A stretch of 64,000 nucleotides of DNA from positions 5,127-69,126 of the forward strand of contig JAOACZ010000128.1 in NCBI GenBank assembly GCA_026417575.1, read 5' to 3'. The translations under genes and the position numbers were made by a program. The notes beneath the pieces were generated by a model, which worked only from the letters and a program-made list of their open reading frames with translations, was not told the DNA's origin and did not search any database. Below are positions 37,401 to 61,479 of this stretch, piece by piece; position 1 is the first letter of the stretch, and the number at the start of each line of letters is the position of its first letter. This DNA is from a bacterium (GTDB lineage: Bacteria > Auribacterota > UBA3054 > JAPLST01).

Positions 37401-39039
37401 TCACAAGGTGAGTGAAGACATAGCGCGGGTGCGGCACACGACGCCGGGGGTGACCTTGATTTCTCCGCCGCCGCATCATGACATTTATTCAATTGAGGAC
37501 CTTGCGCAGCTTATTTACGATTTAAAGATGGCCAATCCGCGGGCGAAGGTGTCGGTGAAGCTAGTGTCCGAAGTAGGTGTCGGCACGATTGCTGCGGGTG
37601 TGGCGAAAGCGAAAGCGGATTTGGTGTTGATTGCTGGCTACGATGGAGGGACGGGAGCATCGCCGCTGACGTCGATTAAGCATTGCGGGCTACCGTGGGA
37701 GCTCGGGTTAGTGGAGACGCAGCATGCATTGATTGCGAATCATTTGCGCGATCGGATAGTGGTGCAAGCAGATGGGCAGATGCGGACGGGGCGGGACGTT
37801 GTGATTGCGGCATTGCTGGGCGCGGAGGAATACGGTTTTGGGACGGTGATTTTGGTGACGCTGGGGTGTATATTGATGCGGAAATGCCATTTGAACACGT
37901 GTCCGGTGGGGGTGGCGACGCAGGATCCAGTGTTACGGTCGCGTTTTACGGGGAGTCCGGACTATGTGGAGCGCTACCTGCGCTTTGTGGCGCGGGACGT
38001 GCGCGAGCACATGGCGCGGTTAGGGTTCCGCACAATGGATGAGATGATTGGGCGGGTAGAGATGCTTGATTTCGAGCCGGCGGTGGAGCACTGGAAAGCG
38101 AGGGGGGTGGATTTGCGGCCATTACTGGCGCCGCCGCCAGGGAATGGCATGGTACGGCGGTGTGTGCGCGGGCAGGAACACGAGGTCAACAAGTCGCTGG
38201 ATGTAGAGTTAATTCAGCTGGCCGCGCCGGCGTTTGAGGATCCGCCACGGGCGGTAGCGCAGAGTTTACGGATTCGGAATGTGCATCGGACGGTGGGGGC
38301 GATGTTAAGTGGTGAAGTAACGCGGCGTTGGGGGGCGCGTGGGTTGCCACGCGATACGATACGGTTTACGTTTACTGGGTCGGCGGGGCAAAGTTTTGGT
38401 GCGTTTCTTGCGCCGGGGATCACGTTGCGATTGGAAGGGGACGCGAATGACTATGTGGGCAAGGGTCTTTCTGGCGGGACGATCATCGTGGTACCGCCGC
38501 GAGATGCGCACTTTGTGGCGCATGAGAACATCATAGTGGGTAACGTGGTGTTGTACGGGGCGACATCGGGAGAGTTGTACGTGTGTGGGATGGCAGGGGA
38601 GCGTTTTGCGGTACGGAACAGTGGGGCCATTGCGGTAGTTGAGGGTGTGGGTGATCACGGTTGTGAATACATGACGGGAGGGCGGGTGGTGGTATTGGGG
38701 CAGACCGGTGTTAATTTTGCGGCGGGGATGAGTGGAGGAATAGCGTACGTGTATGATGAAAACGAGCTGTTTGGCACGCGCTGCAATTTAGATATGGTTG
38801 ATTTAGAAACTGTGTGGACGGAAGCGGACCAGCGCGAATTGCATGCGCTGATTACGCAGCATTTAATGTACACGGGGAGTGCACGTGCGCAGTACATACT
38901 GGACAATTGGGAGACGTGTTACCCCTTATTTGTGAAGGTGATGCCGATGGACTACAAGCGCGTGCTGGAACGAATGCGGGTGCAGGAGCATACAGATAAC
39001 GAAGCGGTGCCGGCGACGGAGGAGGTTTTCCGTGGGTAA
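34498..39039 (+). CDS. gltB: Glutamate synthase large subunit
   Basis: About 1510 aa. [22 protein letters not shown] gives the amidotransferase Cys after a short propeptide, followed by FMN and GXGXG domains. An alternative GTG start lies at 34450. Confidence 0.9.
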
Positions 39040-40462
39040 GCCAACAGGGTTCATGGAATATACGCGTGTTGATCCGCCGAAGGAGCCGGTAGCGGAGCGC
39101 CTGCAGCATTATCACGAGTTTGAGAAGCTGCTTCCAGAGGCGGAACTGCGGCGGCAGGCGGCACGTTGCATGGATTGCGGGATACCGTTCTGTCACATGT
39201 ATGGCTGTCCGGTGATCAATTTGATTCCGGATTGGAACGACATGGTGTATCGGGGGCAGTGGCGGAAGGCGTTAGAGTTGTTGCATGCGACGAATAATTT
39301 GCCGGAGATCACGGGGCGGGTGTGTCCGGCGCCATGCGAGCCGGCGTGCACGCTGTCAATTAATCAGCCGGCGGTGACAATCAAGCATATTGAGTTAGAG
39401 ATAATTGAGCGAGGGTTTCGGGAGGGGTGGGTGGTGCCGCAGAAGGCGCCGGTGCGCACACACAAGCGAGTAGCGGTGATAGGATCGGGGCCGGCGGGGC
39501 TGGCAGCGGCGCAGCAATTGGCGCGGCGGGGGCACACAGTAGTGTTGTTTGAGCGTGACGACCGTGTGGGCGGCCTGTTGCGCTACGGGATTCCGGATTT
39601 TAAGTTAGAGAAATGGGTGTTGGACCGGCGGATGGAGCAACTGGCGGCGGAGGGGGTGGTGTTTGAGCCGAATGTGAACGCGGGCGTAGATATTACGCCA
39701 GCGGAGTTACGGCGGCGATTTGATGCGGTGTTGTTAGCAACGGGGGCGGGGGTGCCGCGCGATTTGCGGGTACCGGGGCGGGAGTTGGCTGGGGTGCATT
39801 TTGCGATGGAGTTTTTGACGCAGAACAACCGACGGATTGCGGGCGACACGATTGATCCTGTGCGGATGATTACAGCGAAAGGGAAGCACGTGGTAGTGAT
39901 TGGTGGGGGAGACACTGGGTCAGATTGCATAGGTACGTCGTTGCGGCAGGGGGCGGTCAAGGTGACGCAGTTGGAGCTCTTGCCGAAGCCGCCGGAGCAG
40001 CGAAGTGAGCGGAATCCGTGGCCGGAGTGGCCTTGGGTGCTGCGGACGTCGACGTCGCACGAGGAGGGCTGCGAGCGGATGTGGAGCGTGGATACGAAGG
40101 AGTTGCTGGGGGATGGGACGCGCGTGACGGGGCTACGCGCAGTGCGGTTGGAATGGAGCGATCCAGATGCGCAGGGGCGGCGTACGTACAGAGAAATAGC
40201 AGGATCAGAGTTTGTGTTGAAGGCGGATTTAGTATTGTTGGCGATGGGGTTTGTGCATGTGGAGCACGGACCTCTGGTACGGGAGTGGGAGCTGGCTTTA
40301 GATTCGCGTGGGAATATAGCGGTCGATCGGTCGTACATGACGTCGTTGGCGGGGGTCTTTGCTGCGGGCGACAGCATGATGGGGGCATCGCTGGTGGTAC
40401 GCGCAATCAATCACGGGCGCCGCGCGGCTGCGGCGATTGACGCGTACTTGCAGCAAATCTAG
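39032..40462 (+). CDS. gltD: Glutamate synthase small subunit (NADPH)
   Basis: 476 aa with a GTG start overlapping the gltB stop by 8 nt, SD GGAGGAGG upstream. Contains [15 protein letters not shown] and [14 protein letters not shown]. Confidence 0.9.
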
Positions 40463-40524: not shown

Positions 40525-41751
40525 TTATTCCCTGGCGAAGGCAGCGACACGGGCGTCTGTGTCGTTCGTCAGGCGCGCGAGAAGAGCACGGGCTGCCTGA
40601 TTTGTTTCCATGCGCAGGCGGAATGCAAGGAAGCGCCGTGTATCTCTATCCTGCTCGCGCACAACTGGCGCGAGGAGGTGAGTGGTACGGGGAAGAGAAG
40701 CGAGGCAATCAATGGCTGCCGCGCGCGCCGTGAACGAGGTGCTGCGCAGAGAGGGCTGAACGTCGGCTAGTTTGGCCGAGAGTTGACCTGGTAAGCGCCA
40801 GAGGGTGAGGACGAGCATTGCTTCTGAGGAGATCGTGTTAATGGTAAACAGAATGGAAGAGGGTTGCTCCCAATTCCAACGGCAGGTATCGCGATCGCGG
40901 TTGCGGTTGGCGCGTAGGGCACGCCGCAACGTGGCGGCGCGCTGATCGGCGGACATTCGGAGGTTATAGACGGCGCGATACACAGGTTTATCCCAGAGGA
41001 ACGCGTAGGGATGCTGGCAGAGTAATTCAAGTGGTTGCAACGCCTGCGGCGCGCGAGAATGATCGAGGAGCACAGCGGCCGTGGTGAGGGCTTCCAGGGT
41101 CGTCCGCACGTCGAAGATCGTGTTGTTTCCAGCGGAGCGGTGTGGGAAGTCTAGGTCGGGAGCAGCTCCTGAGGGAGAAGGTGTGGCGCCCTGTAGATCT
41201 GGAAAAAGCTCTGGCCGAGCACGTACGGCAAACGCCCAAGCTGGTGTGAGGGGTTCGAGGCTACGCACATAGATAACGGGGGGAAGTGTGTGGAGTAAGC
41301 GCGTGATTTCTGCTGCGATCAACTCGTACACAGCAGGGTAGCGTGCGCGGTAGAGAGCCACGCAGGCAGCGGGCGTTAGGCGAAAGTGGTCGCGAATTAC
41401 GCTGTCAGCAGTAGGGTCATGAGTGCGCAGAGTAGCGAGCGCATGCAAGGCGTAGCCACGTGCAATATCAAGACTTTTTGGGTTGACCGTAGCGATTGTA
41501 CCAGCTTCGAACTCGTCACATCGTTGCAAGATGGCAGCGAGGGCGCGTACGCTGCGCTGATCGGGCAATTGAGCGAGGCGTATGGCATACTGCCGGAGTT
41601 CACTTGGAGAGAGAGCCAGGCGAGCGGCGTGCTCATACCGCTCGATTTCAGCCAGCTGGTCAGGGGAGAGAGCTGGCGCTGGGATGGCGCAGAGTACGGC
41701 GAGGAGTGCGCCAAGGAGTGATCGCCAGCGGGGGAATGGGCGGGAGGTCAT
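40525..41751 (-). CDS. Secreted hypothetical protein, helical-repeat-like
   Basis: Start revised to MTSRPFPRWRSLLGALLAVLCAIPAPA (ATGA overlap with the upstream stop at 41748-41751). No recognisable catalytic motif. Confidence 0.55.
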   Translation of the reverse strand: MTSRPFPRWRSLLGALLAVLCAIPAPALSPDQLAEIERYEHAARLALSPSELRQYAIRLAQLPDQRSVRALAAILQRCDEFEAGTIATVNPKSLDIARGYALHALATLRTHDPTADSVIRDHFRLTPAACVALYRARYPAVYELIAAEITRLLHTLPPVIYVRSLEPLTPAWAFAVRARPELFPDLQGATPSPSGAAPDLDFPHRSAGNNTIFDVRTTLEALTTAAVLLDHSRAPQALQPLELLCQHPYAFLWDKPVYRAVYNLRMSADQRAATLRRALRANRNRDRDTCRWNWEQPSSILFTINTISSEAMLVLTLWRLPGQLSAKLADVQPSLRSTSFTARAAAIDCLASLPRTTHLLAPVVREQDRDTRRFLAFRLRMETNQAARALLARLTNDTDARVAAFARE

Positions 41752-44700
41752 GGGGCGCTGGGCGAAGAGGAAAGCAGGATGGTGCGCATGGAGGCGTGGG
41801 TGAGGCGGTGGTTGGCATCGAGCAAGGCGGGGTACGTGTCTGGGGGAAAGACAGCAGGGCGTAGGCGGAGGTCCTGGGTCATGGGGAGGAGGTTGGTAGC
41901 ACTGCAATGCCACTTGGCACTGCAGCGGACGAAGCCAGTTTGTTGGGGGGCGTACCATGTGTACGTGGGCGGAAGTAACTCAGCGTGAGCGAAGGAAGTG
42001 GGCAGGTGTACGTGGGTGGTGATGGTTATTTCGTTGTCGCTGTCCCAGTAATACGGAGTTGAGCGTGTATCAGCCCGCAGGCCGGGCAAGCTGATTAAGC
42101 CGGCAGGCAAGGTGCCGTACAAACTTGTGCCGTCACGTACCAAGTAGCGTGGCACGTGGACAGTAAATTCCTCGACGCCCGGGTAGCGCTCGTGCTGGGT
42201 GTGGAGCGGGCCGATGGCGCGGGCGGCTTGAGAGATGTTAGCGACGAGTTCCAGGTAATGGCGACGGCGCTGTTCGGGCGTCATCTCAGTGTACTGTTTG
42301 CGAAACGCGCCGAACGAGGTGCCGTAGTAGACGCGCCGATACGTGAGGCGCGCGTCGCCTTGCTCGTCGACGGAGAGGTCGTAGAACAGTTCGGTGTGAG
42401 AGCGGCAGCGGCGGGGTGCGCGCACGCGAGTAAGCGTACCGGCCGGCAAGAGCAGCGCGGGCCGGCCATCATGACGTGTGACACCTAATTCGGCGTATTG
42501 GTCGGTGTCATTTAAGTACCACGTTTCGGCGCCACACAGGACGCGGACGAGGACGGTGGGGAACACGTGACGTTGCGGGCAGAGGAGGCGTGGGTTGTTT
42601 GGCCGGGTGAGGCGTGGCTCACTTGAGGCCAGGACGAATTCAGCTGTAACGCCGATGGCGCGAAGCATAGAGAGGTAAAGGATCGCGCGGTCTGCGCTAT
42701 GACCATAGCCATCATGGAGGGTGCGATCGGCGGGGGAGAGGGAGGTGAGTGGCATGGCAGGGAAGGGAGGCCCGGCGGCACGGATGTGTGTGGCGATGAA
42801 ATCACGCACCGCGCGGATTTTGGCGCGGCGACACGCGAGCCCCGCGGTGAGGGCTTGTGCGCGGGCGATCGCAGCGGTTTGCCCCTCGGTAGCACGGAGC
42901 AACGCGGCGTGCACTTCCGCTGCGTAGCGCTTCCAGGTACCGCAGGAGGCCACGACACCTGGGGCGAACATCCAGAGCGGGGGCTGATTTGGTTCTGGAG
43001 TGATTGGCGGTTGATTGGTCATTTCCCAGGTGTACTCGATGACAGCGTGGTTGCTGGCGATGGTTTCCATGACCTGGCCGCCGGGGGTGAAACAACGTGT
43101 GAAAGGCAACTCGAGCGGGACGCGGCAGCGCACACGCTTACGCTGGATCGGATCGAACGTGCGGAAGAGTGCGTAAAGGTCGCATGAGGGCCGGTGGCGC
43201 TGTGTGCGCTCCACGCAATACTCGATCGTACTGCCGATTTCCACGCCGGGCAAATTTACGACGAGGATTTTCTCGCCTGGGTAGCGCGGGGCCCTCCCTA
43301 CCCATGGGGCGTCCATGTAGTTGATTTCATTGGTGCTGGCAGTGAAGAGGCGGCCATCGGGCGTTGTCACGCGGGCGTAGTGGAGGGTGACCGTGTCCCA
43401 CACAGGATTGAAGGGAACTTTCAATTCGGCATGTTGTTTCTTACCGGCGTAGGTGAGGATCTGCTTTTTGACGCGTGTGAGGACACGTTGGGTGTGCGCA
43501 TCATGGACTTCATACAGTTCATCGGCGTCGTGAATAACGACGTCTCCGCGAGATGGGTCGGCCTCGCGCGCGAAAATAGCGCGTTTGCGGCGGTCGAACT
43601 CGATTGAGCGTAGAGCGTCTTTCAAGGCACGGTAGTCCTGAGGCGAGAACTCGACCAGGCGGAGTTGCTGGAGGGCGTGCGCATGGAGAACGCCGTCACG
43701 TACGGTCATCTGAGCCTGCCACACGAGGGAGGACGAGATGATGGCTTCGATGTGGGGGAGCGTGTGGACCGGCCCGGCCGCGCCATCCATGGTCAAACGG
43801 ATATTCTCGGAGACGCCGCAGGCGTACTTTGTTTCGAGGGGATACTTGCGCTCGTCCAGACCGGTTGCGCCAATGACGAAGTTGATCAGGCCGACGGAGG
43901 TGCCGAACCACAGAGGCGGCAACATGACGACTTGGGGGCCGACGATGGGGAATTCACGGGCTTCGTAGGTTAGGTGGACATGGAGGGGCTTGCTCATGTC
44001 GCGCAGTTCTCGTGGCGTGATTTCGCACGCGAGGATGCGTGCGCCAGGCACGACACGTTTGACGAGACCTTCAAACATGTGGCGGCGTTCTATTGGTTTC
44101 ATGCGCACCAGGGCGCTGCGGTACGCGTTGTCGTTAATACCGTCAAAGGAAAGCCGGGTTTGGGCGCGCAGCGTACCGTCGCGAGAAAGCTCCCCGGTCG
44201 TTTTGATGCGCATCATATTGGCCTCGGCTGGTATGATTGGGGAGACGCGTAAACAGTCGCCCGCGGGCTTCGCAACTAAATAACTCCGATCACATAAGTA
44301 CGCAGGGAGAAGTTCTTTGGTGGTTTCGTCGGTAGGATCCATGAGTGTGTACGAGCCGTCGGCTTCTTCCACAGCGACGACGGCGTGATTAAAGAAGGGC
44401 TGAGGCACCTCAGGATCTTTCTTGGGACCGATGTACATGAGGACAGGGTAGGCTTTGAAGCCAGCGAGGCGGAGCAAGGCAACTAGTAATGCGCCTTTGT
44501 CGCGACAGACACCGTATTTATTTTCGAAGGTGACGCAGACATCGTGGGGTTCGTAGCCGGGAGCTTCAGTTTCGGTGGTGATACCCATGTAGCGAATGTT
44601 TTGAGAGACGTAGTAGAAGAGGGCTTCGAGGCGGGCGCGGTCGTTTGTCAGGCCGGCGGTGAGTTCGGCGACGAAGTTGCTCATTGCGGGGGTGGTGGCG

Positions 44701-45539
44701 GCGAGGCGTGGAGCACAGAGGGCGTGATACCAGCGGGAGACCGTGGCCCAATCAGGAATGGTACTTACGAGCAAACGTTGTACGACGGTGTGGAGCGCGG
44801 GCATGTTTGGTTCTGGAAACATTCGGGGCACATTGCGTACTTTCCAGAGGTAGAAGTTAGTGCCGCCAGCCGAGTGCATGCTTGCGACGACGGTATTGGA
44901 CACAGGGGCCTTAATCACGAGGTGAACGAGGGGACGGCTGGTGGGCCCCCAAATTTCGTAGGTGCTATGGAGGATTGGTGAAGTGAGTTCGAAGAGGGTG
45001 TAATCACTGAAGGTGTCGGGCATGCGGGCTTTGGTGGTAATACGACGCACGACGTAGCGGCACAAGTCACCTGGTTCGAGCCCGGGGATGCTGACATGGA
45101 GGACTTTGCTCTGGGGGTCGAAAATATTTTTGTTCATCTGTGCATCATCTATGGTGATGCGACTTTGGGCGCTGAGATTGACAGGGATGATGCGGCCGTC
45201 TGGTTTGAGGAGTTCCACGAGCTCCACCATGGCGGTGCCGTAGCTGACATTAAAATGAATGGAGAGTGTGCGATTATCGCGCGCGCCTTTATCGGTGAGG
45301 ACTTTCACACAAGTGTCGGCGAGGCTTTCCCAGGTTCCGTTCGCGGCGTAGATGATGCGGGTGTGGTCGTCGACAAGGACGTCATCGGCGTCAGGGAAGG
45401 CAGCGCGGGTAATGTGAGCGCTCGTACGTTGCAAGGATGCGCGGTCGAGCAGGCCGATGGAGGGGGTGCTAAGGGCAAGGTGGGCTCCCAAGAGCACCGC
45501 GACGAGCACGCTCACGGCGTGCTTAGATGCAGTCTTCAT
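41748..45539 (-). CDS. Secreted DUF3857 / transglutaminase-like / DUF3858 protein
   Basis: 1263 aa with a signal peptide. The transglutaminase-core triad context is YGVCRDKGALLVALLRLAG ... FNHAVVAV ... LMDPTDE. Confidence 0.7.
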   Translation of the reverse strand: MKTASKHAVSVLVAVLLGAHLALSTPSIGLLDRASLQRTSAHITRAAFPDADDVLVDDHTRIIYAANGTWESLADTCVKVLTDKGARDNRTLSIHFNVSYGTAMVELVELLKPDGRIIPVNLSAQSRITIDDAQMNKNIFDPQSKVLHVSIPGLEPGDLCRYVVRRITTKARMPDTFSDYTLFELTSPILHSTYEIWGPTSRPLVHLVIKAPVSNTVVASMHSAGGTNFYLWKVRNVPRMFPEPNMPALHTVVQRLLVSTIPDWATVSRWYHALCAPRLAATTPAMSNFVAELTAGLTNDRARLEALFYYVSQNIRYMGITTETEAPGYEPHDVCVTFENKYGVCRDKGALLVALLRLAGFKAYPVLMYIGPKKDPEVPQPFFNHAVVAVEEADGSYTLMDPTDETTKELLPAYLCDRSYLVAKPAGDCLRVSPIIPAEANMMRIKTTGELSRDGTLRAQTRLSFDGINDNAYRSALVRMKPIERRHMFEGLVKRVVPGARILACEITPRELRDMSKPLHVHLTYEAREFPIVGPQVVMLPPLWFGTSVGLINFVIGATGLDERKYPLETKYACGVSENIRLTMDGAAGPVHTLPHIEAIISSSLVWQAQMTVRDGVLHAHALQQLRLVEFSPQDYRALKDALRSIEFDRRKRAIFAREADPSRGDVVIHDADELYEVHDAHTQRVLTRVKKQILTYAGKKQHAELKVPFNPVWDTVTLHYARVTTPDGRLFTASTNEINYMDAPWVGRAPRYPGEKILVVNLPGVEIGSTIEYCVERTQRHRPSCDLYALFRTFDPIQRKRVRCRVPLELPFTRCFTPGGQVMETIASNHAVIEYTWEMTNQPPITPEPNQPPLWMFAPGVVASCGTWKRYAAEVHAALLRATEGQTAAIARAQALTAGLACRRAKIRAVRDFIATHIRAAGPPFPAMPLTSLSPADRTLHDGYGHSADRAILYLSMLRAIGVTAEFVLASSEPRLTRPNNPRLLCPQRHVFPTVLVRVLCGAETWYLNDTDQYAELGVTRHDGRPALLLPAGTLTRVRAPRRCRSHTELFYDLSVDEQGDARLTYRRVYYGTSFGAFRKQYTEMTPEQRRRHYLELVANISQAARAIGPLHTQHERYPGVEEFTVHVPRYLVRDGTSLYGTLPAGLISLPGLRADTRSTPYYWDSDNEITITTHVHLPTSFAHAELLPPTYTWYAPQQTGFVRCSAKWHCSATNLLPMTQDLRLRPAVFPPDTYPALLDANHRLTHASMRTILLSSSPSAP

Positions 45540-45564
45540 AGCGAAGCCTCGTGGTTACGCGTTC

Positions 45565-45593
45565 ATTATACTGATTCTGCCTTGCACAGGTAA
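45565..45593 (-). promoter_or_regulatory. sigma70-type promoter of the DUF3857 gene
   Basis: Minus strand reads TTACCT-17 nt-TATAAT, 25 nt upstream of the ATG at 45539, with ACGAGG as SD. Confidence 0.45.
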
Positions 45594-45815
45594 AGGAGAG
45601 GCGGCCGGCAGGCGAGAGATGTAGCGATGCAGCGGGAGGGAGAGGAACGCGTGCTGATTGTGTGACGGAGCGGCGATTTTTGCGCAAAACTTGCTCGGGA
45701 AAGTGTTGCATGGAGAGCTTTCAACAATTGATGGTTTTGACGTGAGTGATGCGGAGATGGGGGGACGAACATTGCGGCGGAAGCGATCAAGCGACAAAAA
45801 GAGGAGATTGCAGAT

Positions 45816-46053
45816 GACAAAAAATGTCGTTTGAGACGGCGAGGTGTTGAGGTAGGTAGTGCGAAAGCGACGCGGGCAACGGGCTGGTTCCTGCAAAGGC
45901 TTCAGTCAACGAAAAATGTCGTTTGCAATCGGCAAAAAGTGTCGATTGAAGAGCGGGTAGTGGCGGCGTATGGAGTTCAGATGAACCTGGCTGGGGAGTG
46001 GAACAAATGTTCTTTGGCCAGCAAATTGGAACGACGAAAAATGTCGTTTGCAG
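45816..46053. repeat. Cluster of 4-5 copies of a 14-17 nt dyad-symmetric motif (core AAAAATGTCGTTTG)
   Basis: Copies: 45816-45836 gacaaaaaatgtcgtttgaga; 45907-45928 caacgaaaaatgtcgtttgcaa; 45931-45950 ggcaaaaagtgtcgattgaa; 46033-46053 gacgaaaaatgtcgtttgcag. A degenerate palindrome gaacaaatgttc lies at 46001-46012. Confidence 0.7.
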
Positions 46054-46132
46054 AGGAGCTGAAAGGCCGATTAAGAGGATACGAGAGGTGGTTGACAGCG
46101 ATTTGATCGCGCGGGAGGGCAGGGCCGGCGCG

Positions 46133-49100
46133 TTACTGTTTTTTCTCCGGGGGGGGTAAGGGGATGTTGTCGAGCAAACCGCGGATCATCTTCACACCCG
46201 TGCCGAGTTCCTTGCGAATAGCTTCCGTAGGGAGTTTGTCGATGACATTTTGGAACAGGGCGCGCGGGTCGAGGCCGAGGAGGGGCATGAATTGGTCAAG
46301 TAAGGAGTTGTAGGGCAAGCCAATTTGTGGCTCTTTGAAAGTCCCGGTGATGGGGATGGGGAGGGGCAAATCGTAGTAGCGGCCGAGCTCGCCCGAGAAA
46401 GGCAGTTTATTATCGAGGAGATCGGTGATGCCTTTGGCGGTGAGGGCGAGATGCATCATCAGGTCGAGTTGCTGAGCGAAGGTGACGTTGCCACGGAGAC
46501 TGATGCGCGCGAGTGGGCCCTGCAAGGCGACAGAGGTAAGATGGACGATGCCGGTGTGAATGGAGATGCGAGCGAGGGCATCGCCGACAGTATAATTCTC
46601 GAGGGCTTCGAGATGCAGGGCGCGACCGACGGCGGAGAGGACGGGGACGTTGACGAGGCGGCCATTTGTCATATCGGCGTTGAGTGAGCCGCGGAGGTTG
46701 CGGGAGAGACTTGGGAGACGGATGCCGCGACCGGCGAGTGTGAGCTCTGTGGCGAGCAGGCCGTCAATGGTATCGCGGCGGTCTGGGGTGAATGTATTGA
46801 AGATAGGTTGGAGGGGGAGGTTGGTGAGGGAGAGGGCGAGGCGATAAGCGTAGCCAGTGAGAGTGAGATCAGCGTCTGCGGAGAGGTCAATCCGGCCGCC
46901 ATTGAGGCGGAGTTCTGGTGTACGGAGGGTGAGTTGGCCATTGTTGAGAGAGAGGTCGAGGTAGAGGGGGAGGAAGAGGAGCTCGCGGGCGCGGAGTTCT
47001 TCAATGCGTACGCGGACAGAGGCGTCACGGCCGTAGAGGGGGAGGGGTGGAGGTTCAGGTGCTGGGGTGGTGGTAGGCGGAGTGTGGGGGGGTGAAGATT
47101 CGCGGGGAGTGGGAGTGGGCTGAGGGGGTTTTGGGGGCATAAAGGTATCGAGCAACACGGTTGCATCGAATTGAGGGGAGGAGAGGGTAAGTGAGGTGGG
47201 AGCGTTGGTGGGCACGAGCATGACTTCGCCGTGGAGGCTGAGTTTGTTGTCGCTGAAGCGGGCGGGCTGGAGGTCGAGGGTACAGCGGGGGAGGCGAAGG
47301 AGGTCGGGGCGGAGTGCGGCGTGAAGATTGAGGCGCAGCTTATCCCAGTCTGAGGATGTGCGGCGGGCGGTGTTTTCGATGGCGAGGTCGAGGCCGATTT
47401 GTTGGGCTTTGCGGCTGGGGTCAGCTTTTTCGGTGAGAAGCTGGAGGGTAATATCGAGGCCTGCGAGGCGAGGGTTCTGTCTTTTTGGGTCGAGAAGTGG
47501 TTGGAGGACGGTGCTGGAGAGTTTAGCGATGGCGAGAGCAAGGCGATTTGTGCCGGTGGGCAAGTCATAGAAACCACCGAGAGCGATTTGGCCAGCGGGA
47601 ATGTTGTCGTTAGCGATTTGGGCACTGGCGCGGTCTATGACGATGTGCTTGAACTGAGACAGGTTGGCGGCCCAATTGAGGGCGAGATCGAGGTCATTCC
47701 AGTGCGCCTGGTGGAGCTGGAGATTGAGGTCGCCGATAGAGAGGGAGCCACGCGCGGCGAGTGAGGAACCGAAATCGACAACATCGCAGGTGGCGCGGGC
47801 GGAGCAGACACCGGCATTGAAGCGAGAGGGGGTTGAGCGGAGGAAGGCGTTAAGTTGGGATAGATCAAAACGGTCGAGGACGAGCTCGAGGGAGGCTTTT
47901 TCGGAGGTAGCGCGGCGGGCAGCGGTTTTCCAGCAGAAGGTGACGGGTTGGAGGGTACGGGCGGTAAGCAACGTACGTTGGTGTTGGGCTGCGGTGATGA
48001 GGAGATCGGGGAGGGCGAGTTGGCCGAGACGGAGATCGAGAGTGGTGGAGGTGCGAGCGGTGAGGTCGAGCGGGGGCAAGAAAGAGCCATCGGGGGCACG
48101 CAGGCGGAGTTGTGTGAGGCGAGCGGAGAGCTGGGCGGTGAGGGTCTGGGCGTCGGCGCGAGCGAGGGTAGCGAGGGTCACATCGGCGCGAGTGTCACTG
48201 ATGTCGAGCGGTGCGGAAGGCCCGAGCAGGGCCTGCCAGAACGGGCTGGCGTTAAGTTTTAACATGAGTTGATTGTTAATGAGCTGCTGGGCGACGTCAA
48301 GCGAGCCTGTGAGGGAGAGGAAGGCGAGGAGGTCGTTCTGCCAGCGCAGGGTGGCGTCACAGCGGCTCAATTCGAAGCGATCCACACCGCGCTGATGGAG
48401 GTCGATGGAGCAGAGCAGGGTGAGTGGCGTGACATCAAATTGATCGAGGCGACCGAGCAAATTAGAGGCAGTGCAAGAGAAAGTGAGGGAAGACGGGATG
48501 ATGGTGTCTTCAAAGCGCGTATCGAGGCGCAAAGAGAGGGGGACGCGGGAGAGGAGGATGCGGTGGCCATCGGTGAAGGCGAGGGAAGCATCGAGGACAA
48601 GTGAGCCGCGGCGATGGGGGCCGATGCGCTGGGCGGTGAGAGAAAGGCCGGTGATATCGGCATGGGTTCCGGAGAGATCGAAGTAGGTGATGCGGGCATT
48701 GCGGACACGGAGTTCACCGATTGCGACGGGGACGGGGATATTGGGCAAGCGCGGGGGCGGGATGGGTTGTTCGGCACGTGGTGGGCGGGGTGGTGGGGTG
48801 GGGGGCTCGGCGGGTGCTTCTGGGGGGCGCGCGGCGAGACCGATGACGGGGCGGTCAATGATTATGCGATCAATGTGGAGGGGGGAGTCGAGGAGGGCGG
48901 GCAATGTATAACGGACATCGAGTGAGTGAACTTCGATTAGCACGTTGGTCGCGGCGTCGTCGGGCGAGATTTGCTGGATCCGCAGGCCTTCGAGCGCCAG
49001 CGATGACCAGAGGCGTAGGCGCCAGCCTGCGAGACTAACATGATAGGGCGTGAAGCGATTCACTATCGGGACAACGATCCTGCGGACAACAAAGGAGGAG

Positions 49101-49192
49101 TGAATCGCGAGAACAATCAGTACAAGCAGCACCACAACCGCGCCGCCGCCGCCGCCGACGATCCGTAGAACACGCCTGAGCCAACGTTTCAT
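46133..49192 (-). CDS. AsmA-like / DUF748-type large envelope protein
   Basis: 1019 aa. N-terminal TM anchor (RIVGGGGGAVVVLLVLIVLAI), a long beta-rich body, two Pro-rich linkers, and an AsmA-like C-terminal region. Family assignment is by architecture. Confidence 0.55.
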   Translation of the reverse strand: MKRWLRRVLRIVGGGGGAVVVLLVLIVLAIHSSFVVRRIVVPIVNRFTPYHVSLAGWRLRLWSSLALEGLRIQQISPDDAATNVLIEVHSLDVRYTLPALLDSPLHIDRIIIDRPVIGLAARPPEAPAEPPTPPPRPPRAEQPIPPPRLPNIPVPVAIGELRVRNARITYFDLSGTHADITGLSLTAQRIGPHRRGSLVLDASLAFTDGHRILLSRVPLSLRLDTRFEDTIIPSSLTFSCTASNLLGRLDQFDVTPLTLLCSIDLHQRGVDRFELSRCDATLRWQNDLLAFLSLTGSLDVAQQLINNQLMLKLNASPFWQALLGPSAPLDISDTRADVTLATLARADAQTLTAQLSARLTQLRLRAPDGSFLPPLDLTARTSTTLDLRLGQLALPDLLITAAQHQRTLLTARTLQPVTFCWKTAARRATSEKASLELVLDRFDLSQLNAFLRSTPSRFNAGVCSARATCDVVDFGSSLAARGSLSIGDLNLQLHQAHWNDLDLALNWAANLSQFKHIVIDRASAQIANDNIPAGQIALGGFYDLPTGTNRLALAIAKLSSTVLQPLLDPKRQNPRLAGLDITLQLLTEKADPSRKAQQIGLDLAIENTARRTSSDWDKLRLNLHAALRPDLLRLPRCTLDLQPARFSDNKLSLHGEVMLVPTNAPTSLTLSSPQFDATVLLDTFMPPKPPQPTPTPRESSPPHTPPTTTPAPEPPPLPLYGRDASVRVRIEELRARELLFLPLYLDLSLNNGQLTLRTPELRLNGGRIDLSADADLTLTGYAYRLALSLTNLPLQPIFNTFTPDRRDTIDGLLATELTLAGRGIRLPSLSRNLRGSLNADMTNGRLVNVPVLSAVGRALHLEALENYTVGDALARISIHTGIVHLTSVALQGPLARISLRGNVTFAQQLDLMMHLALTAKGITDLLDNKLPFSGELGRYYDLPLPIPITGTFKEPQIGLPYNSLLDQFMPLLGLDPRALFQNVIDKLPTEAIRKELGTGVKMIRGLLDNIPLPPPEKKQ

Positions 49193-50781
49193 GGCGATGT
49201 GCTCTCTGGCTGAAGGATTAAGAATGTTGGCAGTCCTTTCACGCCGAAGTAGGCCAGGATCTCTTTTGTCGGGGACTGGGTAGGAACTTCAGCTATGTAC
49301 TTAATTTTAATATAGCGCACTAAGCGCTCGTTCACCCGTGCATTTCGGAAGGTGGTTGCGTCCATGGCGAGACAGTTTTTACACCAGGATGCCCAGAAGT
49401 CGAGGAACACCGGCTGGCGTGTGCGTTGAGCGATAGTAAGGCCTTCGACGAGAGAAGTTACCCAGCCGGGATGAGCCGACGGCGTTGGGGAAACGACGCG
49501 CGAGCGTGCGCGCAAGAGACGAACGCCCTCATACCCATACCAAAGCGCAATAATGAAGATAAGCGCGCCGAATGCGTATTTGACCTTGTTCATCCACGCA
49601 CCAGGCTTCGGCAAAAGGGTCAAGCCAGCCCCGGCGAGCGGCCAGGGTAAAGCCATGCCAAGCCCCAAGATGAATGGAAGGAGCATACCCGCCCATAGAC
49701 CGCGCGCGTACATGTCCATCGCCAGCACGAGAACTTGAATGACGACAGGGGCGACACATGCGCCAGCTAAAAGGGCAGCGATGGCGCCTAGCACAAAGGC
49801 CACGATCAACGATCCTTGCTTTGGTGCGACGGCGATCTGCCCCCGATACCGTGTGAAGTCGATGGTGATTACATCACACATAGCGAGTGCCAGGACGCCA
49901 AACAAGAGAGCGACGGCAAGATTGAACCATGGTGAGGCGTTAAGCGTGCCAAACTGAGCCCCAGTCAGTGCTACGACCACGCCCAGGGTACCGTAAGCGA
50001 GGGCCATACCGGCGCCGTACATGGCGCCGAGGAAGAAACCGCGCATGCGTGAACCCGCACGCGCGCCCGCACCAAGTACGGCGAGATTGACGGGAATCAT
50101 GGGCAACACGCAGGGCGTTAAATTTAGTGCGACACCACCGAGCAGGATGAGCAGTAAAGAAAGCCAGATACGTTGGCGCTGGAAGCGACTGAGGACAGAT
50201 TCTTCAGGTGGGGCGGAGCCTTCTGCACGATCCAGGAAAGCGAGAAAGTCACGGGCTGCGAGGTAACCGGAGGCTGTGCCGACGACGCGGAATCCACGCG
50301 CGAGAGTCTGCCAGTCTGCATCGAGAGGGGCCCCCAGTGTTGCAGGACGAACGACCGCGGATATCATGCCGTTGGGGCTGACGTTAAAGTGCCGTGTTAC
50401 GGGCGGGAAGCAAATCAGCTCGGCAGCGCTGCAGCCTTGGTACTGAACCGTCACAACCGTGGTGGTGGGTGGGCCTGTCAGGAAGTAGCGCGCTGTGAAA
50501 GATTCGTGATAGAGCGAGGTTTCTTCTTGTGTAAGGGGATCGAGTTTCCTGACGGGTGCAGGGATGTCGAGCGGTGCGAGCACGTGCGGCGGATTCGCGG
50601 CTACGCGGAGTGTATGCGCATAGAGATAATGCTGGGGTGGAACGACGTAGGTAACCGTGAGGACCGTACCGGAGGGTGTCTGTGCTTCGGAGGCAATGTG
50701 CACATCGAAAGGTGCATCGGCGCGGACAGCAAGTGCAGGAATCGCGACAAGCAAGACGAGTGAGCACCACATGAAGCGCAT
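49189..50781 (-). CDS. dsbD: Thiol:disulfide interchange protein DsbD (three-domain)
   Basis: Alpha domain YQGCSAAELICFPP, TM domain LNLTPCVLPMIPV and AGACVAPV, C-terminal thioredoxin FLDFWASWCKNCLAMD. Confidence 0.8.
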   Translation of the reverse strand: MRFMWCSLVLLVAIPALAVRADAPFDVHIASEAQTPSGTVLTVTYVVPPQHYLYAHTLRVAANPPHVLAPLDIPAPVRKLDPLTQEETSLYHESFTARYFLTGPPTTTVVTVQYQGCSAAELICFPPVTRHFNVSPNGMISAVVRPATLGAPLDADWQTLARGFRVVGTASGYLAARDFLAFLDRAEGSAPPEESVLSRFQRQRIWLSLLLILLGGVALNLTPCVLPMIPVNLAVLGAGARAGSRMRGFFLGAMYGAGMALAYGTLGVVVALTGAQFGTLNASPWFNLAVALLFGVLALAMCDVITIDFTRYRGQIAVAPKQGSLIVAFVLGAIAALLAGACVAPVVIQVLVLAMDMYARGLWAGMLLPFILGLGMALPWPLAGAGLTLLPKPGAWMNKVKYAFGALIFIIALWYGYEGVRLLRARSRVVSPTPSAHPGWVTSLVEGLTIAQRTRQPVFLDFWASWCKNCLAMDATTFRNARVNERLVRYIKIKYIAEVPTQSPTKEILAYFGVKGLPTFLILQPESTSP

Positions 50782-50799
50782 GTCGAGGAGTCCCGCCGG

Positions 50800-51030
50800 C
50801 TATCCGCTCATTTTACAACTTCCGCAGCCGGCAGAGGGGCATGTAGGCAATTGCTCCCGCATACCACACGCAGTCGGGGCATTAGTTGTGACGGCGAAGG
50901 TAGTCAACTGAAGTGTAACCTCGCGGCTGTTGCAGTGCGGGCAACGCTGTTTATTGCGCTCCTTATAACTTGGCACGAGGATTTCTGACTGATTTCCACA
51001 AGCGCGACAATGATAGACGTAGAGAGGCAT
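50800..51030 (-). CDS. FmdB-family zinc-ribbon protein
   Basis: MPLYVYHCRACGNQSEILV...CPHCNS (CxxC...CxxC) with a Cys-rich tail CPSAGCGSCK. Confidence 0.75.
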   Translation of the reverse strand: MPLYVYHCRACGNQSEILVPSYKERNKQRCPHCNSREVTLQLTTFAVTTNAPTACGMREQLPTCPSAGCGSCKMSG

Positions 51031-51048
51031 AGGGTAATTGAGAAAGGG

Positions 51049-51597
51049 TTACTTACGATGTGGTGGAATGGTGCCTGGAGCGAGCAGTTTGGTTTCAATC
51101 ATGAAGGCAAGGCGATCAGGCTTCGTAGTACCAACGAGGCGATACTGTTCACGGCCGGCGCGGAAGAAGACAAAGGTCGGAACAGAGAGGATAGTGTATT
51201 GAGGTTCGAGCTTGCGCAGGGCGGGCTTACTGATGTCCACTTCGGCCACGCACACTTGGTCAGCAAAGTCACGTGCCATGCGATGCAGAGTGGGGAGCAT
51301 CATGACGCAGGGTGCGGACTTGCGCTGATGAAACATGACCAGGACAGGGAAGGAGTTACTAAGGACTTCGCGGACAAACTCAGCGGGTAGTTCGACGGAG
51401 AACACCGCGCCGGTGGTACTGGTGCGGAGAGGTTGGCCAGTGGCCGGCGTGACGAAATTAGCGAGTGTGGTGGTTCCTTGTGCTGTGGGAGGGGCCGCGG
51501 GCGGCGTGGTGGTCGGGTTCTCGCGTGAACAGCCGGCCATCACGCCGATCATCGTCATCGCGCTCAGCCACGCTGTGCCAACCTTCCGCGCCCGCAT
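51049..51597 (-). CDS. Thioredoxin-fold lipoprotein, monothiol (SxxC) active site
   Basis: Lipobox VMAGC. The Trx-like core VLVMFHQRKSAPCVMMLPTL has Ser in place of the first active-site Cys, and VPTFVFF is present. Confidence 0.6.
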   Translation of the reverse strand: MRARKVGTAWLSAMTMIGVMAGCSRENPTTTPPAAPPTAQGTTTLANFVTPATGQPLRTSTTGAVFSVELPAEFVREVLSNSFPVLVMFHQRKSAPCVMMLPTLHRMARDFADQVCVAEVDISKPALRKLEPQYTILSVPTFVFFRAGREQYRLVGTTKPDRLAFMIETKLLAPGTIPPHRK

Positions 51598-51621
51598 CAG
51601 ACCCCTGACGGTGCGATTAGT

Positions 51622-52137
51622 TTATTTGCATTCGCCGCACGGGGGTGGACAGGCTGGAGGACAGCTCGGCGGGCACGGCTTCTTCCAGGACTTTTTGCCC
51701 TTGCACGGGTAGGGGCAGGGGCGGCCCTTGGGTGCGAGCGGGATGCAGCCTTGCCGTGGATTTACGTACGTTTGCTTTGTGGGTGGGATCCAGCGCGCAT
51801 CCCACACAAAATCTGGCACGAGGTCATGGTAGTACAGGCCTTTGCCCGTCAGCCCGAACGTGACGACATCTGTTACGCCTGCGAGCTCACGCCAGGTTGT
51901 TAAAAAAGCACCTTTGATCGGCCCGCTGAGGAAGCCTACGATCGGGATGCGGGAGTTTTCATAAATCAGGCCACGCGGAATTTCGAGCCAGCCCGTCATG
52001 ATGTTCGCGAAACCGCGCGCCACCCCGTAAGCCGGGTTGATCGGTTTGGCGCCAGACGGCCTCGCCTGGTGCGACTTGCCAGCCATCAATGTCGTTGCTG
52101 CCATCAGAACGGCAAGTGCACATGCGAGTGCTTTCAT
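51622..52137 (-). CDS. Small secreted protein, paralog 1 of the W-x-E-[IL]-PR family (TIGR04073-like), Cys/Pro/Lys-rich tail
   Basis: Signal peptide. Core ARGFANIMTGWLEIPRGLIYEN...AGVTDVVTFGLTG...VPDFVWDARW. Tail CIPLAPKGRPCPYPCKGKKSWKKPCPPSCPPACPPPCGECK. SD GAGGAG. Confidence 0.7.
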   Translation of the reverse strand: MKALACALAVLMAATTLMAGKSHQARPSGAKPINPAYGVARGFANIMTGWLEIPRGLIYENSRIPIVGFLSGPIKGAFLTTWRELAGVTDVVTFGLTGKGLYYHDLVPDFVWDARWIPPTKQTYVNPRQGCIPLAPKGRPCPYPCKGKKSWKKPCPPSCPPACPPPCGECK

Positions 52138-52207
52138 ATCTGCTCCTCAGGTTAGGGTTATGCGCGCCGCACACGGCGGCTGCGCCGGAGAGCTGCGATT
52201 CTGGTGT

Positions 52208-52237
52208 ATTGTACCACACCTCCAGGGCTGTTTGCAA
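52208..52237 (-). promoter_or_regulatory. sigma70-type promoter of paralog 1
   Basis: Minus strand reads TTGCAA-18 nt-TGgTACAAT. It sits back to back with the aminopeptidase promoter. Confidence 0.4.
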
Positions 52238-52241
52238 TGCT

Positions 52242-52270
52242 TTGACTCTCTCACGGCCTTCTGCTATAAT
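52242..52270 (+). promoter_or_regulatory. Consensus sigma70 promoter of the M29 aminopeptidase gene
   Basis: TTGACT (52242-52247), 17-nt spacer, TATAAT (52265-52270). The in-frame GTG at 52278 is 7 nt after the -10. Confidence 0.6.
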
Positions 52271-52277
52271 TTCGCTA

Positions 52278-53366
52278 GTGAGAACAGAATGGATAGAGCG
52301 TTGGGCGCGCTTGTTGGTGCGCCATGCGATACGTGTGACCCGCGGCAGCGTGATTAAAGTTCGCGGTACGGTGGAGGCGCGCGCGTTGATGACCGCCGTA
52401 TACGCGGAACTGCTGCGTGCGGGCGCGCATCCGCGCATGACAGCTGTGCTCCCTGAGTTGACGCATCTTTTCTACACCTTGGCGAGTCGTGAGCAGCTCG
52501 GCTACCTCTCGCCGCTCGACGTGCATGAAGCGCGGCATTGTGATGGCTTTATCACGATCAAAAGCGATACCAACACCCGCGAGCTCTCGACCATTCCAGC
52601 GGAAAAACAGGTTATCACGATGAAAGCGGCGAAGCCACTTTCTGACATTATTATCAAGAACGACAACTGGACACTAACACTCTACCCGACCGCGGCCTAT
52701 GCGCAGGACGCCGACATGGCCATGAGCGAATTTGAAACGTTTGTGGCCAAGGCGTTATTTCTGGACAAATCCGATCCAGTGGCAGCCTGGCAGGAGCAAG
52801 AGCGCTGGCAGGCCAAGCTGGTGCGGCGGCTGGCAGCGGCAAAAACGGTGCGAATTGTCGGTCACGATACGGACCTTTCGCTGAGCGTAGCGGGGCGCAC
52901 GGTCCTCAATGACGGTGGGCATCACAACATCCCCGGGGGTGAGATTTTCACAGCGCCGCTCGAGACAAGTGCAGAGGGACGCATTCGCTACACGTATCCG
53001 GTCGTGGCGTACGGGCGTGAAATCAGCGACATTTATCTTGAATTTGCGCGTGGAAGAGTCGTCAAAGCTAGTGCGGCCAAACATGAGGAATTTTTACACA
53101 AGATGTTAGACATGGATGCGGGTGCACGTTATCTTGGTGAGTTTGGGATTGGTACGAATTATGGCATTCAGCGGTTTGTGCGCAACATTCTGTTCGATGA
53201 AAAGATTGGGGGGAGTGTGCATCTTGCTGTCGGCCGCAGCTATCCGAAGTGCGGTGGCCGCAACAAATCCGCGCTGCATTGGGACATGATTAAGGATCTG
53301 CGTCAAGGTGGCATGTTGTATTTTGATGGAACGCTTGTGCAGCGTGACGGGAAGTTTCTCATTTGA
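52278..53366 (+). CDS. M29-family aminopeptidase (AmpS/PepS-like)
   Basis: NIPGGEIFTAPLE, LGEFGIGTN, LFDEKIGGSVHLAVG. Start moved to the GTG at 52278 (362 aa) because the consensus promoter lies inside the longer track ORF. Confidence 0.75.
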   Translation: MRTEWIERWARLLVRHAIRVTRGSVIKVRGTVEARALMTAVYAELLRAGAHPRMTAVLPELTHLFYTLASREQLGYLSPLDVHEARHCDGFITIKSDTNTRELSTIPAEKQVITMKAAKPLSDIIIKNDNWTLTLYPTAAYAQDADMAMSEFETFVAKALFLDKSDPVAAWQEQERWQAKLVRRLAAAKTVRIVGHDTDLSLSVAGRTVLNDGGHHNIPGGEIFTAPLETSAEGRIRYTYPVVAYGREISDIYLEFARGRVVKASAAKHEEFLHKMLDMDAGARYLGEFGIGTNYGIQRFVRNILFDEKIGGSVHLAVGRSYPKCGGRNKSALHWDMIKDLRQGGMLYFDGTLVQRDGKFLI

Positions 53367-53382
53367 TGCGCAGGAGGCTGGT

Positions 53383-54081
53383 ATGAAAGCGTTCATTACG
53401 TGTGTGATCCTCCTTGTGATGGCAAGCTCGCTTTACGCGGCGCAGGATGTGCTTATTCTCAAAACGAAGAAACGCCTGGTCGGAACGGTGACAAATGTCA
53501 CGGAGCGCGGGTTGAGCATTCGCACGGCTCAGGGACTGTTTACGTATCCGTGGGAGGCGTTGCACGAGCAGTCCTTAAAGATCTACAATCCGCCGATGTA
53601 CGAGAAGCTGATGGAGCAGCGACGCAAAGCGTTTGAAGAACTCAAGCGCAAGCAAGGCCTAGTACAGTACAAAGGGCGGTGGATGACGCCGAAACAGAAA
53701 GAGGCGGCAGAGATGCGCGATAAGGGCATGGATTTGTTTGAGGGCAAATGGCTACCCACTAACGAGATCGCGGCGATTAAATTCCGTCGCCAGATGGAAG
53801 CTGAAGGCAAGATTGAATACAAAGGGCAGTGGTATACGGAAGCTGAACTTGCGGAAGTGAAGGAAATGGAGCGCAACCGTGGTCTGAAGGTGGGCATGAA
53901 AGAAGATGAAGTCATTGCCAAGTGGGGCAAGCCCACGCGGCGAAAGGAGTCTGAGTCATTTAAGGCCCAGCAGATGGAAATGTGGTTTTACGCGCGAGAA
54001 GACGAGGGTGTCGAAGATCGGTTGTTGTTCAAGATGGGTACGCTGAGCGAAATTCAGCTTGACCAACCGTTGTCAGAATAA
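53383..54081 (+). CDS. Secreted hypothetical protein with YKG-x-W repeats and BamE/SmpA-like C-terminus
   Basis: ATG at 53383 with SD AGGAGG. Signal MKAFITCVILLVMASSLYAA. Repeats YKGRWMTPKQKE, FEGKWLPTNE, YKGQWYTEAE. C-terminus GMKEDEVIAKWGKP...MWFY. Confidence 0.6.
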   Translation: MKAFITCVILLVMASSLYAAQDVLILKTKKRLVGTVTNVTERGLSIRTAQGLFTYPWEALHEQSLKIYNPPMYEKLMEQRRKAFEELKRKQGLVQYKGRWMTPKQKEAAEMRDKGMDLFEGKWLPTNEIAAIKFRRQMEAEGKIEYKGQWYTEAELAEVKEMERNRGLKVGMKEDEVIAKWGKPTRRKESESFKAQQMEMWFYAREDEGVEDRLLFKMGTLSEIQLDQPLSE

Positions 54082-54110
54082 CCGTGTAACGTAACCAGAG
54101 GAGCGATCGA

Positions 54111-54263
54111 ATGTCACGTCATCCCAGCTTCGGCAAAACTGGCATTGTCAAGAAACGTAACGTGTTAAAACGCTTTCAACGGATTGATCTTCTAAGAAAG
54201 CAGGGGCGCTTTAAGGAAGGCGACTCTGTCTACGGCTTGCCCAAGACCAAACCGCAGGCGTGA
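54111..54263 (+). CDS. Small basic protein (50 aa), not in the ORF track
   Basis: My translation: MSRHPSFGKTGIVKKRNVLKRFQRIDLLRKQGRFKEGDSVYGLPKTKPQA. GAGGAG lies 6 nt upstream. 14 K/R against 3 D/E. It resembles the PVC 'small basic protein' family from memory. Confidence 0.6.
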   Translation: MSRHPSFGKTGIVKKRNVLKRFQRIDLLRKQGRFKEGDSVYGLPKTKPQA

Positions 54264-54271
54264 GGCCGGGC

Positions 54272-55036
54272 ATGAGGATTCCCGTCATTGCGGGCAATTG
54301 GAAGATGCATAAGACCGTGGCCGAGGCTGTGGCCACGGTGACTGAGTTGAAAAGGCGGCTGGCGGGTGTGACTGGCGTGAAGGTGGTGGTGTGCCCGCCG
54401 TTTCTCGCCATAAAGGCGGTGGCAGATGCTCTCGGTGGTACGGCGATCGGCGTGGGTGCGCAGGATTGTTTTTGGGAAAGCTTTGGCGCGTTTACGGGCG
54501 AGGTGAGCCCGGAGATGATCAAAGAAGCGGGTGCGACGTATGTCATCATTGGCCATAGCGAGCGCCGCCAGTATTTTCACGAAACGAACGAGACCGTGAA
54601 CAAGAAAGTTAAAAAGGCGCTGGCAGCGGGTTTGACGCCGATCGTGTGCGTAGGCGAGACGTTAGCCGAGCGGGAAGCCGGGCAAACGGAACGGGTGGTG
54701 AATGATCACGTGACGAAAGGGCTGGCGGGGTTGAACGCGCATGAGGTAAGGCGGTGTATCATCGCGTACGAGCCTGTGTGGGCGATTGGGACGGGCAAGA
54801 CGGCTACACCCCAGCAAGCGCAGGAAGTGCACGCGTTTATCCGGCAACGCCTTGCGCAGTTGTGGGATTCTGCGACCGCCGCCACGGTGATCATCCAATA
54901 TGGGGGCAGTGTCAAGCCAGAGAACATTAAGGAGCTCATGGCCGAGCCGGACATTGACGGCGCGCTGGTGGGCGGCGCGAGCCTGGAAGCCGCCTCGTTT
55001 GAAAAAATCGTGAAGTACAACGGACCGATGACGTAA
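54272..55036 (+). CDS. tpiA: Triosephosphate isomerase
   Basis: MRIPVIAGNWKMHKT, IIGHSERR, AYEPVWAIGTG. The track start (GTG at 54260) overlaps the small-protein stop; the ATG at 54272 fits TpiA N-termini better. Confidence 0.9.
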   Translation: MRIPVIAGNWKMHKTVAEAVATVTELKRRLAGVTGVKVVVCPPFLAIKAVADALGGTAIGVGAQDCFWESFGAFTGEVSPEMIKEAGATYVIIGHSERRQYFHETNETVNKKVKKALAAGLTPIVCVGETLAEREAGQTERVVNDHVTKGLAGLNAHEVRRCIIAYEPVWAIGTGKTATPQQAQEVHAFIRQRLAQLWDSATAATVIIQYGGSVKPENIKELMAEPDIDGALVGGASLEAASFEKIVKYNGPMT

Positions 55037-57459: not shown

Positions 57460-57468
57460 GAGACTTGT

Positions 57469-61469: not shown

Positions 61470-61479
61470 ACTGCCAGTG

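Follow-up and report, generated by a model that had tools for sequence, protein, structure and literature searches.

A DsbD/AsmA-like gene set and a transglutaminase-like gene pair are probably two independent operons that adjoin in a single genome of an uncultured clade

Seven genes, here lettered A to G, follow one another on the minus strand at positions 40525-52137 of the window, a stretch of 64,000 nucleotides from a bacterial contig (JAOACZ010000128.1 of GenBank assembly GCA_026417575.1, positions 5,127 to 69,126), and the question that they raise is whether they form a single envelope gene block. The initial annotation described an 11.6-kb block in which a periplasmic redox module, including a DsbD-type protein (D), is joined to an AsmA-like protein (E) and to a giant transglutaminase-like protein with DUF3857 domains (F). 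All seven genes are present in the order described, with spacings from A to G of 24, 18, 18, -4, 593 and -4 nt, and the two ATGA overlaps are sited exactly as claimed: the D stop and the E start share 49189-49192 (...CCATGAAACG), and the F stop and the G start share 41748-41751 (...CCCATGACC). We nevertheless consider it quite probable that the run comprises two independent transcription units, A-E and F-G, which are adjacent only in this genome and have the functional roles proposed below.

The evidence that carries this reading is gene order in the relatives. These belong to the same uncultured clade, about five or six genomes with proteins that are 54-71% identical, and the nearest homologues of D and F place the clade as probably of the Planctomycetes-Verrucomicrobia-Chlamydiae (PVC) type. 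The order A-B-C-D-E and the D/E ATGA are kept in L001/L002, L003, L004/L005 and L093; L037/L038 are A-E contigs already found that were recovered again through D. In the relatives, E is followed by small open reading frames (ORFs) and a DNA glycosylase, by a convergent S8 peptidase or by HflX, and A is preceded by DUF1844/PanC or a Y1 transposase, in place of the M29 peptidase of the window. The F-G pair, with its ATGA, is kept in L010/L011, L091 and L092 (F 67-71% and G 54-59% identity) between unrelated flanks: a C10 peptidase and Fic, a giant laminin-G protein and a histidine kinase, or DAHP synthase and an S8 peptidase. F and G are never beside A-E in any related contig examined, and in one sample F-G (L092) and A-E (L003) are on different contigs. 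Because each unit is conserved with its own promoter elements, between different flanks and never next to the other, two independently inherited operons appear to have become neighbours here only. The expectation that both pairs, DsbD/AsmA-like and DUF3857/partner, would be conserved beyond this genome was therefore borne out, with the same ATGA in several relatives and rearranged flanks, whereas the block that joins them was not: A-G is not kept as one gene cluster in any relative, and each sub-unit is conserved by itself.

The surroundings of the run in the window are themselves informative. On one side lie gltB and gltD, which are convergent with it (34450-40462, plus strand), and on the other side lie a divergent M29 peptidase and then triose-phosphate isomerase (52089-55036, plus strand). 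The trio of M29 peptidase, an unknown gene and triose-phosphate isomerase is directly upstream of A in the window, and the same trio in L001 (17888-20582) is ~5 kb downstream of E on the opposite strand, a shift that places rearrangement breakpoints on the flanks of the A-E operon without disrupting it.

Both units have promoter-like sites of their own (Table 1). In five genomes (the window, L001, L003, L004 and L093), the TTGCAA element, the TG-extended TA(C/A/G)AAT and the leader are kept upstream of A; the leader is GC-rich and ends ...GGCGCGCATAAC...GAGGAGC ahead of the A ATG. All four genomes compared (the window, L010, L091 and L092) have an exact TATAAT 25-30 nt ahead of the F ATG, at 45565-45570 in the window, and the surrounding sequence is otherwise unrelated. 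A-E would be a compact operon of five genes, with a promoter and leader of its own, that has been passed on intact in the clade, and F-G would be a second unit served by its own -10 box. Several points weigh against this division and against the roles attached to it. The promoter calls are consensus matches plus conservation, with unmapped starts; the scan 3' of E revealed no convincing intrinsic terminator, so read-through from E into F is possible; the clade is narrow, and part of the operon conservation could reflect inheritance, not selection; and the signal peptides and membrane anchors were called by eye from the N termini alone.

These points bear on a different explanation, in which A-G is one envelope super-operon and the redox module serves both giants, for example with DsbD keeping Cys345 of F reduced. 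The seven genes do share one strand without a strong terminator after E, all products except C look extracytoplasmic, as had been predicted, and the invariant catalytic Cys of F must stay reduced outside the cytoplasm. However, F-G stands beside A-E in no relative examined, the two being on separate contigs even in the same sample, F has its own conserved -10 box, the gap between the units holds an unrelated dispersed repeat, and the F orthologues across the PVC phyla have no DsbD or AsmA-like neighbor within 10 kb. Synteny largely refutes the super-operon, and we regard it as very improbable.

Table 1. Genes and other features of the A-G region, in order along the minus strand
Feature	Position	Strand	Length	Description	Basis
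Promoter-like site of A-E	52208-52237	minus		TTGCAA, 18 nt, TACAAT, with TG before the -10 element	scan and conservation
A	51622-52137	minus	171 aa	TIGR04073-family protein, signal-peptide-like N terminus, Cys/Pro-rich tail	
B	51049-51597	minus	182 aa	thioredoxin-fold lipoprotein, SAPC instead of CxxC	
C	50800-51030	minus	76 aa	FmdB-family zinc ribbon	
D	49189-50781	minus	530 aa	three-domain DsbD	
E	46133-49192	minus	1019 aa	AsmA-like	
Dispersed repeat array	45794-46052	minus		~50-nt units in the 593-nt E-F gap	
Promoter-like site of F-G	45565-45594	minus		TTTACC, 18 nt, TATAAT; TATAAT 25 nt before the F ATG	scan
F	41748-45539	minus	1263 aa	tandem [DUF3857 + transglutaminase-like core] x2, secreted	
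G	40525-41751	minus	408 aa	no family; signal-peptide-like N terminus	

The E-F gap was taken in the initial annotation as part of the joined block. The public annotation lists E and F as the consecutive proteins MCX7847588.1 and MCX7847587.1, with no gene between them. The sequence AAACGACATTTTTYGT occurs three times in the gap, against a chance expectation of 0.03. The gap contains three repeat units, each of which comprises two imperfect palindromes of the form CGACA..T-rich..GYCG that are 23 nt apart. The same repeat is present in L092 (2478-2620 and 15040-15090) at 82-87% identity, between genomes whose proteins share only 55-70%; two copies lie there between convergent genes for HU and a radical-SAM protein, and one lies at the 3' end of the G orthologue. 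None of the other clade loci examined (L001, L003, L004, L010 and L091) contains it, and the gap does not resemble the sequences that follow E or precede F in the relatives. Rfam searches with the gap and the repeat gave no family at the gathering threshold or at E<=1 except for a spurious match to a long non-coding RNA, and the stretch after E has an unexceptional predicted RNA fold (z = -1.8). The sites that it occupies in L092, which are between convergent genes or follow the G orthologue, indicate that the repeat is not simply a promoter operator. Because it occurs elsewhere in L092 and is absent from the other clade loci, it is a lineage-specific dispersed repeat that belongs to neither operon. 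The repeat could be an element similar to repetitive extragenic palindromes or miniature inverted-repeat transposable elements, or an array of binding sites.

Neither the D-E nor the F-G pairing is seen outside one narrow clade. When metagenomes were scanned with D, 51 loci were recovered, and relatives of E, A, B or C were present only in the two that belong to the clade; in the other 49, which lie outside it, tblastn matched none of these four proteins, and a hidden Markov model of the E family found no AsmA-like relative. Downstream of the PVC DsbDs (38-51% identity) are genes for glucose-6-phosphate dehydrogenase (G6PD; three loci), Ig-domain proteins (four loci) or unknowns, and a Pfam search of ten ORFs downstream of non-clade DsbDs likewise returned G6PD, Ig-domain proteins or nothing. 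G6PD directly follows DsbD in L039, L044 and L059, with a 4-bp overlap in L044 and L059, an arrangement that would link a source of NADPH to the DsbD electron pathway. The distant E homologues (P0007 and P0009) have no DsbD upstream. In 23 species-representative F loci across the PVC phyla, tblastn found no G homologue nearby, and the distant G homologues (37-39% identity) have no adjacent F gene. The gene after distant F orthologues encodes a Methyltransf_16 protein (five loci, with a 4-bp overlap), a decarboxylase dependent on pyridoxal phosphate (PLP; three loci), or other or unknown products. A positional analogue of G at these sites was considered and rejected, since the genes there (Methyltransf_16, PLP decarboxylases and unknowns) are unrelated to it. 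The Methyltransf_16 product, of ~215 aa and similar to lysine methyltransferases, overlaps the F orthologue by 4 bp in L022, L026, L031, L032 and L035, which are metagenome-assembled genomes (MAGs) labelled Verrucomicrobia or Akkermansia or unclassified. A methyltransferase also comes after the F-G pair in L010, and it is possible that F-family genes recurrently associate with a methyltransferase gene.

Since 4-bp overlaps with unrelated partners are common for D and F orthologues, such an overlap does little on its own to support a functional connection, and translational coupling by itself does not establish a functional link between DsbD and the AsmA-like protein. The D/E and F/G overlaps may then be packing accidents, left from an ancestor of this narrow clade that acquired compact operons of unrelated genes, which have not yet separated. 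This is a real although lesser possibility, given that such overlaps are frequent (another in the window at 10169-10172, those of DsbD with G6PD and those of F with Methyltransf_16) and that neither pairing exists outside the clade. However, the flanks have been rearranged repeatedly, giving four or five neighborhoods in which the units, overlaps and promoters remain intact, and the Cys-rich tail of A, which is found only in the DsbD-linked paralogue, argues for a tie between A and DsbD. No paper linking AsmA-like proteins with DsbD was found in a literature search, in agreement with the initial annotation, to which no description of this coupling was known.

D has the DsbD_N, DsbD_TM and C-terminal thioredoxin domains of Pfam, with a core of eight transmembrane segments, and its six catalytic Cys residues are invariant in seven clade members. 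The alpha domain (PF11412, 47.2 bits) contains Cys117 and Cys124 (GC-x6-CFPP); the transmembrane core (PF02683, 126.7 bits) contains Cys224 (LTPCVLPM) and Cys342 (GACVAP); and the C-terminal thioredoxin domain (PF13899, Thioredoxin_7, and PF00085) contains Cys467 and Cys470 in the sequence WCKNC at residues 466-470. The score against the curated model NF001419 of NCBIfam is 230.8 bits, below the cut-off of 330. Judged from its sequence, D is a member of the DsbD family, although it falls short of the curated enterobacterial model. There are 7718 homologues; outside the clade, PVC DsbDs are the closest to D, with 45-51% identity. In DsbD of the Escherichia coli type, electrons pass from thioredoxin to the transmembrane Cys pair, then to the gamma domain and the alpha domain, and from there to DsbC, DsbG or CcmG. 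D shares the three domains and all six catalytic Cys residues with this type. It differs in that the nearby genes encode no client of the DsbC, DsbG or CcmG type, in that the sole adjoining thioredoxin-fold protein (B) lacks CxxC, and in that the gene is overlapped by that of an AsmA-like protein, an arrangement found in this clade only. By family knowledge, D would carry electrons from cytoplasmic thioredoxin to periplasmic clients. The Cys-rich tail of A would be its most likely client, with the Cys463-x5-Cys469 pair of E as a possible further one, and the ATGA overlap probably couples the translation of D and E.

The initial annotation had B as a monothiol thioredoxin lipoprotein. The thioredoxin fold (47.6 bits against Pfam Thioredoxin), the lipoprotein assignment and the single-Cys SAPC motif in the window all stand, but the Cys of the motif is not conserved, being replaced in the SAPS of L003 and L093. 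The lipobox Cys23 is invariant among the relatives, and no Cys outside the lipobox is conserved; Cys116 is Arg in L093. A role as a monothiol redox protein was rejected for this lack of conservation. B is judged to be redox-inactive, to go by these substitutions, and would not be a redox relay; it may act as a non-catalytic adaptor. C belongs to the FmdB family (47.7 bits against Pfam Zn_ribbon_8 and 45.4 bits against TIGR02605), is conserved in all relatives and, lacking a signal sequence, is expected to be cytoplasmic.

A heads the operon. Its core domain matches TIGR04073, a family of small secreted proteins associated with the exosortase system, with 50.0 bits, a score exactly at the model cut-off of 50. 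Its membership is supported by three paralogues nearby, which follow one another on the minus strand ~7 kb from A (58934-59560, 59635-60063 and 60070-60909) and bring the number in the window to four; it is typical of this family to have several paralogues in one genome. The three other paralogues have Pro/Ala-rich or acidic extensions and no Cys-rich tail. A differs from the family pattern in an added Cys/Pro-rich C-terminal tail (PCPYPCKGKKSWKKPCPPSCPPACPPPCGECK, with 8 Cys among the last 32 residues) and in its fixed position as the first gene of a DsbD operon. All orthologues have a Cys-rich tail, the length of which varies, and the restriction of this tail to the DsbD-linked paralogue argues for at least a functional tie between A and DsbD. 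A literature search found no paper that mentions TIGR04073.

In the Chlamydiae, which are also PVC bacteria, the envelope contains Cys-rich proteins that are cross-linked by disulfides, and the tail of A invites comparison with them. By this analogy, A-E might be an integrated module for redox control of the envelope in which DsbD sets the disulfides of the A tail and this activity is coordinated, through E, with the supply of lipid to the outer membrane. A-E is conserved as a unit with a complete DsbD, the Cys-rich tail is present only in the linked paralogue, and the Cys463-x5-Cys469 pair of E is invariant within the clade. Against this, the basis of the proposal is purely gene linkage and composition, B cannot be a redox relay, and none of the other PVC DsbD loci sampled has this arrangement. 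Such an integrated module seems unlikely to us, and we retain the more modest reading of A-E as an operon with candidate DsbD clients among its products.

E scores 53.8 bits against Pfam AsmA (PF05170, cut-off 29.8), and its N terminus scores 43.5 bits against DUF748, under the cut-off of 50. An AlphaFold (AF2) model made from an 11-sequence alignment (pLDDT 77, on the scale of the predicted local distance difference test) comprises a helix at residues 4-47 followed by ~45 beta-strands, and the chain includes two long Pro-rich linkers. In a Foldseek search with this model, the best match in the Protein Data Bank (PDB) was the LPD-3 bridge-like lipid-transfer complex (E=2.2e-7), with low TM-scores, as expected for elongated folds. 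The model suggests an inner-membrane-anchored protein with a bridge-like lipid-transfer fold. The close homologues form five clusters with 58-64% identity among 5.8 billion proteins, and the next matches have 22-25%; three Cys residues, including the Cys463-x5-Cys469 pair, are invariant within the clade. E shares with AsmA, TamB, YhdP and YdbH, and with the eukaryotic BLTP1/LPD-3, an N-terminal membrane anchor, a long repeating beta-groove and the AsmA C-terminal region. It departs from these proteins in its low identity (~22-25%) to the nearest non-clade homologues, in its two Pro-rich linkers and in the lack of an adjoining gene for a TamA/BamA-type partner. By family precedent, E would transfer phospholipid to the outer membrane and would be made in step with DsbD. 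E also contains, in alternative frames of the minus strand, long ORFs (46669-47625, 47635-48099 and 48367-48858) that would encode 154-318 aa with a high content of Pro, Ser and Thr; they are most simply by-products of a C-rich coding strand that is poor in stop codons, and not genes.

The second unit contains the larger giant. Pfam and NCBIfam confirmed the domain assignments of the initial annotation except for DUF3858 (PF12970) in F, which was not matched in either half even at E<=1. DUF3857 and Transglut_core occur twice in F, with 63.2 and 41.4 bits in the first half and 81.8 and 25.0 bits in the second. The triad of the first core, Cys345-His385-Asp401, is invariant in 119 of 119 homologues; in the second core, Cys is replaced by Ser, Thr, Asn or Ala, His is lost, and the positions vary across the 119-member alignment. 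F is thus interpreted as a pseudo-dimer with one active half, since the first triad is invariant and the second core is degenerate. Residues 679-969 match, by direct sequence comparison, the 'putative protease' of PDB entry 3KD4, a Bacteroidota protein of DUF3857/transglutaminase-like type (~500-650 aa, single unit). F has the same DUF3857 and Transglut_core architecture as that protein, but it is a tandem duplication of 1263 aa that keeps Cys-His-Asp in the first core only, and DUF3858 is undetected in it.

The family of F comprises at least 1968 proteins with 43-53% identity over the full length, from Lentisphaerae, Victivallales, Kiritimatiellia, Verrucomicrobia (including MAGs labelled Akkermansia), Planctomycetota and Armatimonadetes. 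The double form is a large, strongly conserved PVC-wide family with no characterised member. In the literature, DUF3857 is named only in passing, in two proteomics papers, and a search that combined transglutaminase-like proteins, Akkermansia and the outer membrane found nothing. As a secreted protein with an invariant papain-type triad in one active half, F would be a papain-type Cys-His-Asp enzyme, the most likely action of which is to cleave or cross-link a substrate in the envelope or outside the cell.

G, described earlier as a secreted helical protein, has an N terminus that by eye resembles a signal peptide, which is in line with secretion; its helical nature rests on a single-sequence AlphaFold model that is all-helical and of low confidence (pLDDT 51). 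It has no Pfam match, apart from a weak similarity to NblB/HEAT-like sequences at the C terminus, and a HMMER search of 1.84 billion representative proteins gave 10 clusters of homologues. The start codon is fixed by alignment with the orthologues. G would be a clade-restricted helical-repeat protein made in a fixed ratio to F, and it is probably a binding partner or regulator of the enzyme.

The strand composition of the region is also unusual. Between ~22000 and 56000, the window has an extreme strand-specific GC skew, independent of gene orientation, of 0.13-0.41 per 2 kb on the plus strand, in contrast to positions 1-20000 and 56000-64000; the boundaries are sharp and lie near 21 kb and 56 kb. 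At third codon positions, the skew of the coding strand is +0.61 for gltB and +0.64 for gltD on the plus strand and -0.66 for E and -0.48 for F on the minus strand, and the E orthologue in L003 has the opposite sign (+0.48). This suggests an unusually strong mutational bias linked to the replication strand in the lineage.

Taken together, the juxtaposition of A-G is by chance; every protein except G, which has no family, falls in a recognisable family, and what is left of the proposed block is two clade-specific operon variants of known families. A more ambitious interpretation, to which we give little credence, would make A-E a lineage-specific module in which DsbD controls the disulfides of a cross-linkable A tail, comparable to the chlamydial Cys-rich proteins; the coupled translation of DsbD and E would tie redox state to lipid supply, and the F family would be a core envelope enzyme regulated by the clade-specific G. 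In the favored reading, that of two independent operons, the A-E operon points to a concrete candidate client of DsbD in the envelope of a PVC-type bacterium and gives the uncharacterised TIGR04073 family a first clue to its function, and the F family, which is conserved and unstudied, is a reasonable target for work on the PVC envelope.

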